The position numbers and the translations under genes are program-made. From Vermamoeba vermiformis (lineage: Eukaryota), in the NCBI GenBank assembly GCA_045837725.1, contig JBEWZL010000073.1:124001-188000 (forward strand): a DNA stretch of 64,000 nucleotides, read 5' to 3'. Position 1 is the stretch's first letter; every line of letters starts with the position of its first letter. The notes under the pieces are model-generated. The model saw only the letters and a list, made by a program, of their open reading frames with translations, searched no databases and had not been told where the DNA came from. This document shows, piece after piece, positions 3,194 through 64,000 of the stretch.

Positions 3194-4010
3194 TTACATT
3201 AGAATACAGCGTCGATCAGAGGTGGCTGTGGTGGCACTATTGGTCTTAGTAGCGCCAGTCATCTCCTGCTGAATGCGCGGCCAATTCGCTTCGACCATGC
3301 GCGTCAGAGTGTTGACAGCCTCGTCAATGTTGGTGTTGGTCTTGGCACTCGTCTCGATGTACGGCACGCCCAAGTGATCAGCCAGCTCCTTGGCCTCTTC
3401 GTACGAGACTTGGCGCCTCTCCACCTCGTCTACTTTGGTCGCTACTAGTATGCGTTGCACATGGCTCATGGAGTACTTGGCACTCTCCTCGAAAAACCGC
3501 GTAACGGATCTGAACGATTCACGATCGGTCACTGAGAATAAGATGAATATCCCTGCAGCACCGCGATAATAAGACGACGTAATCTGGCGAAATCTGTTGC
3601 AACATTAACACCCATAGAGCGACAACGTTGTTTCCACCTACCGTTCTCTGCTGGCCGTGTCCCACAGTTGCAGTTTAATCTTCTTGTTGGAGTCAGGCGA
3701 TGTAATAGTTTTTATTTTCTTATCAGTATCACAAACCGTTAGTAAACGCGTGCGAGGTTAAGCAATTTTACTTGAAATAGATCTGATTTTCAAATAAAAC
3801 CAACAGTTACTTACAAAATCAATGCCTATCGTTGCAATATGTTCGGGTATAAATGTACCATCAGCATACCGTAACAAAAATGAACTGCGGCCCGAATTAT
3901 AATCGCCAGCAAGCAATAACTAACGTTTGTTAATATTAACAAAACTGGTACAGGGGTTTCTAAATACGCACCTTATATAGATAATCGTGCTCTGTAGGTG
4001 TGTTGCTCAT
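3194..4010 (-). CDS. Rab1/Rab8-like small GTPase with divergent G-boxes, 4 exons
   Basis: HDYLYKLLLAGDYNSGRSS, TIGIDFK, WDTASRERFRQITSSYYRGA, TKVD, ETSAK, C-terminal CILM prenylation motif. Confidence 0.88.
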
Positions 4011-57834: not shown

Positions 57835-58517
57835 ACATAGTGCTGTTCTATTCCTAGTAATAATAATTATTATTTTAATTCTTTTTTTTCCTCTCCTTGC
57901 TTTTTCCCTTTCTTCTTTTTTTCTCTTTCCGTATATATATATATAAAAAAAGGTTTTTTTTTTTGGAAAAAAATTTGGTTCATGAAAAAAAATGAAAGCA
58001 GTTTGTTTCATGAAAGAATAACCCAGTTTTGGTTTGAATGGGTAGATAAAAAATGCCTGAAATTACACTGCTATTGATGTAAAATAATTAATTACCCAAC
58101 ATCATAATTGTTAATTATAAATTAGCATAGCTGCTTAATATAATAAGTATGGTGCTTTTCTGCCGAGTCCCTGAAAACAAGTTGGAATTTAAGCGTTAAT
58201 TAATTATTCGTAGCATATTACTTGGATATTGCAGCAATAAATATTAACAAAAGATAGTTGTTGACTCTAAAATGAAGAAAAAATTAAGCTTATTTAATTG
58301 AAACCAACAACGACCAATCATGATCTGTTTAGATCCAAAAATTGCCTATTCTTTTTGCCGGGCAATTCAAAAAATTGCTAAGCCCTAAAAAATTACAAAA
58401 ATTTGGCATGGTTCACCCTGTAATTTAGTACAAGTTCAAACAAGACTATCACATCCAAAAAAATAATGGAAAAATAAACAAAAATTAACCACCCATCCAA
58501 ATAATAAGTCCGACACA

Positions 58518-58872
58518 GGATGTATTCATAGGGAGGAATTTGGCCGGGCCCTAACCCATCCAAGTGTCGAAGTCACGTTGAGGTGACTGACACGACCAAA
58601 ACCATGTGATTCATCAATAGAAAGGTTGCAGGCATCAAGGCGACACCCCTCCATAAAGGAGACCGTACAACAAAAGAGTGTCCGCTACGGCAAGTGACAA
58701 GTCACTTTCTAGCCATCCAACTCAGTGCCAGTGAGAGTGCTGTTCCGAACCAGCGGTGTTGCCGAGGCAACACGACCTCCAGACGATACTCTGACCCACA
58801 TCGTCGAGAATCAGCGCGTAACTTTCTCATTGTAGCGGCGCTAAGGCTTCACCCTTAGACGCCGGATGTATT
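58518..58872. ncRNA. Candidate structured RNA or short retroposed element, GC-rich, flanked by GGATGTATT direct repeats
   Basis: Many hairpins (58564-58593, 58756-58773, 58782-58805, 58837-58863) and a long-range helix CCGCTAC/GTAGCGG; no ORF. Confidence 0.5.
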
Positions 58873-58919
58873 ACAAACAGTATTTATTATACTACCTACA
58901 GCAAGTTTGTTAACAAATT

Positions 58920-61900
58920 CTATAGTTTAAGCTTACGACAAACAGGTTTGTGTGTGTTCTTACAAGTACTGCACAGAAAAATTGGTCTTTTTTTGTCGGA
59001 GCTGCATTTCCAACATACTGTGCTAATTTGCTTTCGTTTACGTGGGTTGCACGTTAGGCAAAAACCATTGACTCGTCTTTCAAAGACATCTTCGCTCTGA
59101 ACTCGCACATGAGAAGAGAGACTTTTTGATTTCAGATCTTTTGCGACAATTATTCTTCGGGTTCTGAGAGATCTGTGTCTAGTTAACAGAGATGCATTTT
59201 TCTTGTTGCGTGCAGACTGCTCTTGACTAAGTTCATCCTTTAAAATTTGCAAGAAATCTCGAAATTGATCTTCGTCATCGTTCTGAACTTTCTTATAGTA
59301 GCGATAGCACTGGTATGAATTCCAAGTGATTATATTTATAATATTTTCCCATACTACTTGTGTCCATTTTGTTAATCTGAATGGCCAATCAAACGTATGA
59401 ATTTGTCTTGCCGCCTCGTCGACAAATCCTTTGGTCTTTGTGTATTCTTGGACAATAAGTGTCTTTGTACTCTGCATTTACAACTAAATTAGTAACTTAA
59501 TGATGCAAGCATAAGAAGCTTACTGAAGTTGACGGTACTCCTTGACACAGATCTGTCGCGGATGATGACGCTGCAATGAAATTAGATAAACACTTTGATT
59601 AATATTGAACTAACCATCGACGTAATTGGAATAGAGATTCATAATTGCATTGTTATCGCGGAAAGAGTGAGCGATAATCGGACCAGCAGTGCCTTCTTTT
59701 TCAAACGTCAAGTGTTGCCCTGGTTCTTGTAGAGGATTTTGCAAAGTACCAAATATATATGAAGGAGCATTTTTCTTTGCCGACAACAAGAATTTAATGC
59801 CTTGTTCATCCAAAATAGTAGCCGTCTCTTCCGCACCCCATTTGCTATCTGTTATAATCACGTGGCCTGGCTTGTGATTGTTCAATTTCTCGGCTAGCTC
59901 TAACAGCTGATATTTAGGAGGCAGACATAGACCCAAGAATATATCGAAGTCCCAAATGTAGTAAGATTCATCGGCGGCCAAGTAGAGTAAGACACCGTTT
60001 GGATGTGGCTTGCTTGGAATGAATTGCTGAGTTACGTTAGTTAAAATGTATTATCTAACGATAACAAGTACTTACTCGGGCATAAAAGCGGCCCAAAAAC
60101 GGCAAGATGGTTTCATCAAAGGTAATTTTTTGAGATGGAGACCAATTATTTTGGCATCGTTGAGCTACTTCTTGAGTAACTTTGTCAATATCAAAGTGGA
60201 AATAATGCATAATCTGTTCGAATCGATCTCGGCCCATTTTTGACGATATCCATTCGTTGCCATACAAGGGATCTTTGATAGTCCAGTAATCTCTGAGGCG
60301 ACGACCTTTAACACAACGACTTGCGATACCAATGGCAATGAATATATCAAATTCTGGCAGCGTAAGTGGTTTCCAATTTGTTCTTTGCTTTTGAAAAGTA
60401 ACTTTGTCTTCTTCGGAAGGTTCAAACTCGGTACTAAAATATTCTTCCAAGCATGCTTTACGTTTGAAACCCAACTTGGTACCGTTAGCAATCCTAATTG
60501 TGATCAGAATGTTTGTTTTCTCGTTAGCTTATGTAATATTTACTTTGTATTTTTGTGTCGGCCAAAGTGAGGTGAGTGAAACGCATGCGTTCTTGCATAA
60601 CTTCAGAAAATGAAAGACTGGCATAACGGTTTATATCTTCGACCATCTGTAAACGGGTTTGCTCTGCGGTATTCATTAATTCTGAGAATATTCAACACTC
60701 GAATGAATGATATGTACCAGGCAAAAAGCGCGAAAAGATGCTAGCGTTGGTCATAGGCTGCTTATTGGTGGGCCCGCTAACCAACGTACAAAAGGAGGTA
60801 CGAACAAAACCTTTACTTGTTTTATCTCGTATTTGCCAACCTTGATTGGATAGTGCATGCGGAGATTGGAAGTACTTATTCATTATTAATAGTGCATTTG
60901 CCCGAATGTCCGACTCGCATATCCAATTTGTTTGCACCTTCTTATTTTTCCAATCGATGAGCCATTCCCATAGATCCTAGCCAAAATAAGACAAACATTC
61001 GATTATCTCGCATACGTACATTATGGAAGCGTACTTTGTAAATGCACTTGATTTGCTCAAGAGCTATTTTGCTTCCCGGTGCCACTTTATCCACCATAAG
61101 GAGATCGTCGGTTACAGCCTTAACAACAATATGCGAGTCTGGCAGCTGCCACTCCTTATCTATCGAAGGTGTCTGAAGCTTTGGTTGGCCTTTTTCCAAT
61201 TGCTTGGGTTCTTAACGGTGCATTAGAATTAAATTAGCCGCGTTGCACTTACTTTTTTTAGGAGGAGCAATTAAGTTGTCTTCTGTTTCCAACAGGTTGC
61301 ATGCGACACTGATTTTACGTTTCCTTGTTTGCATCGTACAGGAAGCAGGAACGGCAGTCTTCAACGGAAATTGAATGCCGACTTCGGCTTGTTTAATGTA
61401 AACCACTGCACTGGCAGAGCAAACACCACCACTTAACTGCGAAAGAATAGCAACACGCTCCTAATTGACATTTAGTCCAAGATCGCTTGTTGGAAAAAAC
61501 ATACCCGTGTAACTTTAGCATCATTATAATTGTTCCAATGTAAAGCACAGCGTTCGTTGACAACAACTCCATAATGTCCATTATTGTGAGTTTTTCCATC
61601 GTGCCAAATTACACCATAAAGTAGGTACAAAGTTCCTTCAAAGTGAACGGATGTTTCGATTGTCAAACGTCGAACTTGCTTGTGTTCATCGAGCTCGGAG
61701 AAACGATTGATTCGAATCAATAACAGTTTTGGGTGGTTCAACACCTGTTTGCGTAATTGGCAATCCTTTTTATCATTAGATCGAGTACTTCGTTAACAAA
61801 CATTGATAATAATTACCTTTGCTTGATATTCTACCACTTCCAGAGCAAAAAAATCGTCAATTCCTTGTTGAACACTCTGAATGGATGGCTTAAAGTAGAT

Positions 61901-62763
61901 GTCGATCCCTGTACTACGTTAGTTATGTGTCACAAAAACAATACGTACAGTTGATCTGCTCCACTCTTCCGTCGTTCACTTGAGTAGAATTTTCATCAAA
62001 TATCGCCGTACTGAATTGGATAGCTAGTTCTCGCCGTGAATCTACCAAATTTAACAAATCTTGTAACAATAGGGTAGCGTCTTGTTGTCCAGCTTGCACA
62101 ATTGTTCGTACATTAGAATCGATAGCGAGAGTAGTTGCTAGTCTTTCAAACAGAACTGCAGCATCGACCGGTTGGCTTTGTTCAACGAATTTGAGTAAAT
62201 ACTCGTTGACTAGCATCGCAATCTCGGTAGTTGACTGTTCAAACAGTTGCTGTAGACACGGGACCTTTGCAATAAGTACCAAGCATACGTGCAGAAAACA
62301 ACGAACACTTGGGTTAACAAACCCAAATTTAAACAGTGGAGACTATCGCAGAAAATTAGGATTACTGCACAAGATTATTATTCTTACCTCAAATTCAAAT
62401 GGATATAATTGTATCTTTCCTATCTTATGCGAAGTAAAATTGCCTCTATTTTTTGGCTGGCTGTAAATTTGTTAGCACAGAAGACAGATCGACCGTCGAA
62501 TTTTCTTACTTTAAAATGTTATTAATGATCGCAATAAATTCATCTTTTGCTATATTGCCGTGATATGCTTCGTAGACCCAGTGAATGTCGCCCATTGAGA
62601 GACCACGCTCATTTGTTTCGTGGAAGTGGATCAACGACTGCATGACATTTGGAGAAGCTACAAAACGTTGTAGATCGGTGTCTGAAGATACGACACATTA
62701 AAAATAATTTTTTAATAGTGCAAATAACATAGCCTTACCCGAAAAGACACGAACAAGCGACAT
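58920..62763 (-). mobile_element. piggyBac-family transposase gene with N-terminal USP (peptidase C19) and chromodomain, multi-exon
   Basis: USP Cys box GFVNPSVRCFLH, QQDA, His box HDG....GHY...NYND; chromo IYKVR..WEWLIDWK...NWICE; transposase GP..SIFSRF, LRDYW, MGRDRFEQI, FDE, FIPSKP, ITD, GFVD; C-terminal Cys-rich domain. Confidence 0.8.
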
Positions 62764-63017
62764 CTGCATCCAAAAAAAATAGTACCTTAGTATTGGCTAA
62801 AAAATGTAGTAAATTACTCTAGAACGTCCAAATTTAATTGAGATTTAAGCCGTTTGGGTAAAATAAAAAATATGAATATTCGATTTCAAATTAGGATCGG
62901 GGTCATTTACCCTACTGAAGGCCGGCAATTGGTGGTATCTTGCAACAACATAAGCGTCGAACTGGTTCAAAACAGAAAATGGCGAATTACTGAAGAAAAA
63001 GCACGTGAGTATTTATT

Positions 63018-64000
63018 TCAAGGAATTCCATCGAGATCACTCAGCTGGTTGAAAGCGGCAATGAATGCATTGGGATCGAACTCAGGAACTTCAAAAAGTC
63101 CAAGCGAGCAAAGCAACACTTCATAATGGAGCTGTAGGTACTGTAGCACCAGATCCAGTGGCTGCTCGCCAAATATTGTCGCCATAGCAAGCCCACCTGC
63201 GTCACTTAACTCTAACTCATCCACAACACCGGCAACTCGTTGGTACAATTCGCAAACTTGGACCAGCAATGGATCTGCAAAACTCAGCGTCAACAAAGTG
63301 CATGATAAAAATGACTCCTCTTACTGATCGTTGGTACTGAATGAGCCAAGGGGTGTTCGCATAGGAATTTATGACGATTGAATAGCTCAAATGTGTAGAA
63401 CGGCTCGACGGAGAATTCAGTGTATGCATCCAGGTTCACTCGACGAACTAACCACGTGCCTAATGAATCATTACACAAATTGACACGGTGCGAAAGTTGC
63501 TTACCGATGAATTGGAAGACATCTTCTTGATATTCAACCGCAATTTCGAGAGGAAGACAGTGATAACAATTGAGCCGCACCATGTCATTCCTTGCTGAAT
63601 CTGCCCCGCGATTGACGACAAATGAGCCATCAATCATCGTGCCGCCCGCCCCACCAACTGTTATAACCCCCTCGCGCCAATTACTCCAATTATTACCAGG
63701 GAAATTTTTCCGAAGTAACATCGACATACAACCTGGAGTGAATTAATCCATCGCGCCGTTTAATTTGCAGAATTGGAATTACCTATTTGACTGAGGCCAT
63801 TAAAGGAGGAGTCTATTGTTAAGCCACCAGTAAATTCTGCTTTGGCCAAATCGAACTTGGAATACAGCTCCCCAACCTGAGCTTTCGTTATTTTGATTGA
63901 AGTGATTAAACGTCAAGATTGTCACTTACTTTAAGATGTTTTCTCGGGCCGAAGATACATGATTTACCAACGGCACATTCATGCAACTGCTCGATGAGCA
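63018..64000 (-). CDS. Unknown spliced protein, 5' end outside the window; probable 1-nt frameshift near 63295
   Basis: ORFs 63290-63727 and 63018-63296 abut in different frames; GT-AG intron at about 63733-63783. Confidence 0.45.

Follow-up and report, generated by a model that had tools for sequence, protein, structure and literature searches.

The 64,000-nucleotide (nt) stretch of Vermamoeba vermiformis DNA considered here (GenBank assembly GCA_045837725.1, contig JBEWZL010000073.1, positions 124,001 to 188,000; hereafter the window, numbered from its first letter) carries on its minus strand, at 58920-62763, a gene in which a ubiquitin-specific protease (USP) domain, a chromo-like segment, and the core of a piggyBac transposase stand in one reading frame. 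This architecture is real; it is found in a second, distant organism as well, and all of its modules are constrained. We assign a probability of roughly 0.55 to the reading that it represents a piggyBac-derived gene retained ("domesticated") by the host, which is old, selectively maintained, and not currently mobile.

Results

A three-module fusion shared with a distant relative

The coding region (58920-62763), which is supported by the exon model and by a collinear relative, L001, consists of 14 exons separated by 13 GT-AG introns of 36-57 nt each, most of which have a CTAAC-like motif 10-25 nt ahead of the acceptor. It runs on the minus strand from a start codon at 62761-62763 to a TAG stop codon at 58920-58922 and encodes a protein of ~1,079 amino acids (aa) if a 2-nt surplus at 60451-60452 is read through, with the domain order USP/UCH peptidase, chromo-like segment, piggyBac DDD core, and Cys-rich domain. 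Three of the introns had been placed approximately in an initial annotation of this DNA, and they are borne out as 61461-61504 (44 nt), 61211-61252 (42 nt), and 60977-61019 (43 nt), all of them GT-AG and in frame.

The relative was found by scanning metagenome contigs with exon 11, where 143 pattern matches yielded one locus, the 3,989-nt contig L001. According to tblastn of the window gene model, the USP, chromo-like, and piggyBac segments of L001 are ordered as in the window and lie on one strand, with 41-67% aa identity per segment, and the L001 model comprises 10 exons that form a single open frame of 968 aa, with the N terminus cut by the contig end. Pfam recognizes UCH (41.2 bits) and DDE_Tnp_1_7 (53.4 and 37.7 bits) in the L001 exons. 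The nine L001 introns have the same phase as window introns 4-12 in every case (9/9), and seven of them lie in the identical alignment column, with the other two within 6 columns, beside gaps; a counterpart of window intron 13 (59472-59523) is missing from L001. Synonymous sites are saturated between the two genes (proportion of synonymous differences, pS, 0.71-0.98), and the nonsynonymous proportion (pN) is lowest in the piggyBac core (0.21), followed by the chromo-like segment (0.30) and the USP core (0.33), and reaches 0.53-0.56 in the linkers. Because pN is lower in the modules than in the linkers and pS is saturated, the three modules have evidently stayed together, and constrained, over a long period, and because a distant relative has the same layout, the fusion is of old origin and has been maintained, and is no chance reading.

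It is very improbable that the locus instead comprises two adjacent genes, one encoding the USP and chromo-like parts and the other derived from piggyBac, which would seem fused through short introns that happen to be drawable. Retention of intron 7 would bring a stop 10 codons on and give a USP-only product, which would suit such a pair of genes; however, a single unbroken exon, in the window and in L001 alike, encodes both the latter half of the chromo-like segment and the piggyBac N-terminal motif, the 968-aa frame of L001 has neither an in-frame stop nor a start between the parts, and all of the junction phases are conserved.

Close relatives of the gene are scarce. When 1.84 billion representative proteins were searched by HMMER with exon 11, 339 matches reached E ≤ 0.001, among which P0001 shares 77% identity and P0002-P0004 share 44-47%, and the rest are ordinary piggyBac proteins at ~30% identity. 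Together with the window and L001, these sequences place the family in at least six diverged lineages (window, L001, and P0001-P0004), and the family is nevertheless rare in libraries. Just these four close relatives were present among the 339 matches, and all are short open reading frame (ORF) fragments that form single-member clusters and come from assemblies of metagenomes or runs, on contigs of 2.9-8.4 kb. Protein word-index searches with exon 11 ("longer"), an exon 9 profile ("near"), and a USP profile ("longer") gave no match in any case, and viral contigs gave none either. Bacterial and archaeal genome contigs gave one weak match, on a contig of a bacterial metagenome-assembled genome (L002, 1708-1839), which was dropped as a relative, as its match spans 37-39 residues at 36% identity (E 5e-4) and is without USP or chromo signal; L002 is perhaps an IS-type relative or stray eukaryotic DNA.

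The USP module

Exon 1 (62739-62763), which carries the start codon, is covered by none of the relatives, and the start is therefore the least certain boundary of the gene. Exon 2 (62510-62681) encodes an N-terminal region that matches no Pfam family and in which no domain was recognized, and it is followed by exon 3 (62388-62460), placed by the gene model. The first half of the USP is encoded by exon 4 (61949-62342), and the domain continues through exon 5 (61817-61908), placed by the gene model and by comparison with L001, and exon 6 (61505-61765), which encodes the second half, into exon 7 (61253-61460), where the USP ends and a linker follows; this linker has a basic patch, TRKRK (61314-61328), which is present in L001 too. 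The acceptor of intron 5 is uncertain, so that this intron is either 51 or 72 nt long.

Exon 6 contains the His box (GHY, 61559-61579) and an NNYNDAKV motif (61511-61534) and matches Pfam UCH above the cut-off of 23.9 (36.3 bits, E 6e-9, profile positions 142-238). The match of exon 4, which contains the Cys box (62289-62324) and the QQD box (62052-62087), is under the cut-off (14.3 bits, E 0.032) and covers profile positions 2-108, collinear with the match of the His-box exon. The candidate catalytic Cys (residue 105, codon 62298-62300) falls by position in the Cys box of the profile, with profile position 2 at Gly, and the QQD box, the GHY, and the N-D pair are all conserved in L001, which is without a Cys box because its contig ends before it. 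The domain is divergent, and phmmer of the USP exons against PDB matched no solved USP. The initial proposal of a USP with intact Cys and His boxes is backed by UCH above cut-off for the His-box exon and less firmly by the subthreshold match for the Cys-box exon; the Cys, His, and Asp/Asn are candidate catalytic residues, their roles having been assigned by eye against the motifs of the family.

The piggyBac module

The transposase part begins in exon 9 (60718-60976), in which a short linker separates the remainder of the chromo-like segment (60869-60976) from a piggyBac N-terminal motif (60719-60775), and the N-terminal region continues in exon 10 (60544-60681), which is supported by the gene model, by L001, and by contigs of a DNA sequencing run, X2. 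The end of exon 9 falls on the N-terminal T-P..F..F motif conserved in 25 ordinary piggyBac proteins, and the chromo-like part and the transposase are therefore joined within one exon and not through splicing. The initial annotation had also put the two in one exon, and this proves correct for the window and for L001 (1316-1580).

The DDD core is encoded by exon 11 (60076-60493), with the first catalytic Asp codon at 60115-60117 (TFDET, 60109-60123), exon 12 (59615-60026), with the second at 59847-59849 (IITDS, 59844-59858), exon 13 (59524-59570), placed by the gene model and followed by the intron that L001 is without, and exon 14 (58920-59471), with the third at 59418-59420 (GFVDE, 59415-59429). 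Exons 11, 12, and 14 score 61.4, 32.9, and 19.1 bits with Pfam DDE_Tnp_1_7 (cut-off 22.4). Exon 11 matches the piggyBat transposase structure 9c0f (E 2.9e-7), with TFDET aligned on its LDEG, and exon 14 aligns to residues 433-593 of the T. ni piggyBac structure 6x67 (E 0.019), with GFVD on GGVD and the Cys-rich tails matched; exon 12 had no match in PDB. The Cys-rich domain (58938-59060, exon 14) follows the pattern CxxC...CxxC...CxxC..H...C, in alignment with the tail of 6x67, and is conserved in L001. Among 25 piggyBac proteins, taken in id order from the 31 matches of 500-700 aa among 150 listed, the columns of residues 730, 803, and 914 (TFDET, IITDS, and GFVDE) hold Asp in 23, 23, and 22 proteins, respectively. 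The three catalytic Asp motifs and the C-terminal Cys-rich domain that had been read from the sequence at the outset were thereby confirmed. A fourth Asp, conserved in 20 of the 25 proteins, is Ala in both the window and L001, and a piggyBac review takes four Asp residues as its reference motif (PMC5381638, table legend). The piggyBac core is apparently competent; whether it is a working transposase is uncertain, given that no terminal inverted repeats were found, that the fourth Asp is Ala, and that the window copy is frameshifted.

The chromo-like module

An intron splits the chromo-like segment (residues ~455-510 of the window protein) in the window and L001 alike, such that its first part (61020-61058) lies at the end of exon 8 (61020-61210), which otherwise encodes linker, and the remainder lies in exon 9. 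Examined by eye, the segment has the spacing of a chromodomain, with W-K and (N)TW.PE.N(L/F)-like motifs. When the first 42-44 residues of exon 9 were compared by their ESM Atlas features, Chromo clusters came out best for the window (0.93 for each of two clusters, which share 184 and 188 features with it) and for L001 (0.92 and 0.91; 169 and 171 features shared), and the Chromo set made up 23 of the 30 matches for the former and 26 of the 30 for the latter. Docking of the two exon-encoded halves gave a score of 0.02 against a mark of 0.34. These language-model look-alikes and motifs make a chromo-type fold likely for the middle module, which is a probable chromodomain. The fusion first proposed for this locus stands as a one-frame USP, chromo-like, and piggyBac architecture, for which profile hidden Markov models support UCH (exon 6) and DDE_Tnp_1_7 (exons 11 and 12) in the window and also in L001, but not the chromodomain identity, the Chromo queries having consisted of half-domains.

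A frameshift in the window copy and a second version of the locus

The junction at ~60475-60600 had been thought to need either a GAA|GTTATG...AG splice or a 1-nt correction. Neither is required, and the junction is explained instead by a 50-nt intron (intron 10, 60494-60543, GTAAAT...TTAG, phase 1), which corresponds in position and phase to intron 7 of L001, together with the two surplus bases at 60451-60452, which shift the frame in exon 11. The relatives read ...INR(Y/F)A...ER...SW..N(V/L)K.L..YF... across this region, in a single contiguous ORF in P0002-P0004, and L001 and P0002-P0004 are in frame where the window has the surplus. A 127-nt intron at 60475-60601 with a GTTATG donor was rejected as the main form because the stretch that it bridges is coding in L001 and P0002-P0004; as the GT...AG splice is in frame, it is possible that it serves as a rescue splice that skips the frame break.

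Contigs of DNA run X2 provide a second version of the locus, in which ~1% of exon positions differ. This version is without exactly the two surplus bases and is in frame there, and it has 27 additional bases within 60542-60583, the same place at which L001 has 9 additional residues. Among the 40 single-base differences listed of 41, 22 fall in 2,574 covered exon bases (11 synonymous and 11 nonsynonymous), 6 in 461 intron bases, and 12 in 278 flank bases outside the gene.

The window copy as it stands reaches a stop at residue 714, ahead of the first catalytic Asp, and this haplotype either could represent an allele that broke recently or may contain an assembly error. One could suppose that the fusion was functional in ancestors, and is so still in relatives, and that in this genome it is a decaying pseudogene without a full protein, an idea in keeping with the premature stop, with the window copy being without the 27 exon 10 bases of the second version in a place where L001 has its extra residues, and with the equal numbers of synonymous and nonsynonymous differences among those listed. 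We consider this improbable, as the run X2 version is without the surplus, which could itself be an assembly error, all 14 exons are free of stops apart from this single break, the listed differences are rarer in exons than in flanks, and the alternative in-frame splice at 60475-60601 would bypass the break.

Host gene or transposon

Several observations lean toward a gene of the host, namely the conserved intron positions, the rarity of relatives, the loss of the fourth Asp, and a read depth in run X2 contigs that is similar in the gene (~2,350-2,550) and in the upstream flank (~2,000), the last being a weak hint. As in domesticated genes, pN is 0.21-0.33 in the domains, pS is saturated, and no transposon ends were found in the flanks. 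Inverted repeats between 1.2 kb upstream and 0.5 kb downstream did not exceed chance (score 15; shuffles mean 14.2, maximum 27), and TTAA-flanked terminal inverted repeats, the prospect of which the initial annotation had raised, were not found in the flanks searched (1,237 nt upstream and 0.5 kb downstream). Neither a second copy of the gene nor a repeat of either flank was found in the 64-kb window.

The gene could also encode the transposase of a piggyBac-like transposon that is, or until recently was, autonomous, with ends that are atypical or lie beyond the window, a chromo-like module that steers integration into particular chromatin, as chromodomains do for Gypsy-type integrases, and a USP that acts as an accessory protease, comparable to the Ulp1 or OTU proteases of other DNA transposons. 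The intact DDD triad and Cys-rich DNA-binding domain are what such an element would have, as is the spread of the family over at least six diverged lineages (window, L001, and P0001-P0004), and a frameshift in one copy is often seen among transposon copies. piggyBac tolerates N-terminal fusions, according to PMC5381638, and the chromodomains of Gypsy integrases go with heterochromatic location, as stated in PMC6839031 (citing Gao et al. 2008). Against these points stand the failure to find inverted repeats or TTAA-bounded ends in the flanks searched, the single copy within the window, the great rarity of relatives in protein libraries, the conserved intron positions, and the lost fourth Asp, and we regard an autonomous transposon as less likely than a host gene.

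The sequence past the stop codon bears on the same question. A GC-rich noncoding block 60-400 nt past the stop (window ~58520-58870, L001 ~3425-3745) is conserved despite the saturation of synonymous sites, and in its best-conserved part (58522-58604) the window shares 78% identity over 83 nt with L001 3662-3741. Of the surroundings of the gene, only this block is shared with L001, whose 3,989-nt contig is without neighboring genes. It lies beyond a likely AATAAA signal and contains an invariant 12-mer, on the plus strand GGGCCCTAACCC, which includes the complement of 1.5 TTAGGG repeats, and it has a hairpin and a flanking helix, each with changes in its two sides, where a consensus fold keeps 4 pairs through two-sided changes. 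The block could be a telomerase RNA-like gene on the plus strand, the subterminal sequence of a transposon, or a binding site, and it could hint at a link with telomere biology. Rfam, applied to the whole window with gathering scores and to 58000-58950 with E up to 1, detected nothing, and no TTAGGG array is present in the 64-kb window. Conservation of ~350 nt of noncoding sequence is what would be expected if a transposon needed a cis-acting end sequence there; however, the block is without the usual ...GGG/TTAA end in both species, as judged by eye.

This conserved block is one of a number of points that weigh against a domesticated host gene with the functions suggested by its modules. The upstream search for inverted repeats was limited to 1,237 nt by the edge of the window. 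The complete layout is present at only one other locus, L001, the 5' end of which is missing. The gene may be dying in the window haplotype, because the window copy is frameshifted and reaches its stop at residue 714, and the ratio of 11 synonymous to 11 nonsynonymous differences between the two versions shows only moderate constraint. Three RNA-seq runs (X15-X17), which bear the species label of the best-matching DNA run, gave no reads on 58500-63100, including the flanks with the neighboring genes, which makes them uninformative on expression. With respect to the middle module, Pfam returned no families, Chromo (PF00385) included, at E up to 10 on four half-domain queries (two per species), which were intron-split halves; a profile search and two single-sequence searches of PDB with the chromo-like half-domains gave no matches; and an AlphaFold2 model of exon 9 alone, built from a two-row alignment, had a pLDDT of 50.7 and was unusable. 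In a hand alignment to the chromodomain consensus, just one of the three positions of the aromatic cage, the Trp of the W-K motif, is aromatic, and the other two are nonaromatic in both species, for which reason methyl-lysine reading by the module is doubtful and is rated well below the chromo-type fold.

The runs also differ in how much they share with the window's DNA. DNA runs with the species label of the RNA runs contain 0.47-0.65 of the sampled words, and water metagenomes contain 0.10-0.30; the organism sampled by RNA runs X15-X17 may differ from that of the window.

Surroundings of the gene

The fusion gene has ordinary genes as its neighbors: one of unrecognized type ends ~250 nt upstream, and a DUF6875 gene lies on the opposite strand 1.5 kb downstream. 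The region at 24800-57400 contains dense, long, mostly uninterrupted ORFs, unlike the adjoining 14-exon fusion gene, and the families found there (Trp_DMAT, FAD_binding_4, UDPGT, Glyco_transf_8, PS_pyruv_trans, P450, GH3, GDP-mannose-dehydratase/epimerase type, and DUF6875) are enzyme types that are frequent in secondary-metabolite or sugar-modification clusters. The G+C content falls at ~22 kb, from 0.41-0.51 (1-22000) to 0.34-0.36 (22000-58000).

Discussion

If the modules retain the functions of their families, the chromo-like module would dock the enzyme on nucleosomes, the USP might strip ubiquitin from histones there, or from the enzyme itself or its partners, and the DDD core with the Cys-rich domain might bind and cut DNA, or integrate it. 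The sum of these steps would be chromatin-directed DNA cleavage or rearrangement. It is conceivable, and in our estimation improbable, that the gene encodes a one-protein machine for chromatin-guided DNA cutting in a non-ciliate eukaryote, for example in programmed DNA elimination, chromosome-end processing, or a locus-specific rearrangement.

The closest working analogy is Tetrahymena Tpb2p, a domesticated piggyBac nuclease that cuts heterochromatin-marked DNA and whose Cys-rich domain binds H3K9me3/K27me3 and is required for DNA elimination, according to PMC3861120; in the same organism, separate chromodomain proteins such as Pdd1p mark DNA for removal, as PMC5766162 describes. Like Tpb2p and Paramecium PiggyMac, the fusion gene encodes a piggyBac-derived nuclease sequence, and transposon ends are absent there and were not found here; the ciliate proteins are host-kept and coupled to heterochromatin marks. 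In contrast to both, the fusion gene places a chromo-like module and a deubiquitinase on the nuclease polypeptide itself. The organism of the fusion gene also differs from the ciliates in having ordinary GT-AG introns of 36-57 nt and in using all three stop codons, and it is not known to eliminate DNA.

A second comparison is with the vertebrate fusions PGBD1 (SCAN) and CSB-PGBD3, where N-terminal host exons likewise stand in frame with a piggyBac transposase, where selection has conserved the combination, and where piggyBac is described as a natural 3' exon trap (PMC5381638, main text). The partners differ, being USP and chromo-like here and SCAN or the CSB N terminus there, as does the join, which lies inside one exon here and at a captured splice site there, and the transposase part of the present gene has five introns. 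The main text of PMC5381638 names only SCAN and CSB as added parts, with no mention of "chromodomain" or "ubiquitin" in it; "ubiquitin" is likewise without mention in the main text of a piggyBac survey (PMC10813416) that left out end-less elements and domesticated genes, and the main text of a survey of DDE transposases (10.1101/2021.09.26.461848) mentions neither term.

Each added module has a parallel on other mobile elements. The integrases of chromoviruses (Gypsy-type elements) also fuse a chromatin-reader module to a DDE-type enzyme, and these elements tend to heterochromatin, as PMC6839031 relates (citing Gao et al. 2008). Their integrase is of retroviral type and has the chromodomain at its C terminus, whereas the chromo-like module here is N-terminal to a piggyBac DDD core. 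Ulp1 proteases occur on Ginger DNA transposons (PMC2836005, with 21 mentions of Ulp1). Ulp1 is also carried by further superfamilies of DNA transposons, and some others carry OTU proteases. In the Ginger and OTU cases a protease for ubiquitin-like modifiers is encoded together with the transposase, as it is here, but the protease of the fusion gene belongs to the USP/UCH (C19) family and shares one reading frame with the transposase. The initial annotation had called the architecture unfamiliar for piggyBac, and the main texts of the literature were not found to describe any naturally occurring piggyBac protein that contains a chromodomain or a USP/UCH domain, although supplementary files might list such architectures. 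It is a new domain architecture among piggyBac-derived fusion genes or elements, and it would be, as far as we found in the literature, the first USP-family protease linked to any transposase.

New genes are known to arise when host genes fuse with transposases, and ciliates cut heterochromatin-marked DNA with piggyBac-derived nucleases. In the ciliate systems chromatin is read either by a protein other than the nuclease or by the Cys-rich domain, whereas here a probable reader, a deubiquitinase, and the core are in one chain, a layout that has been retained over a divergence sufficient to saturate synonymous sites. If active, the protein would offer a compact, testable model of how chromatin state and ubiquitin signaling may be coupled to DNA cleavage or integration, and it would be a natural precedent for chromatin-targeted piggyBac tools.

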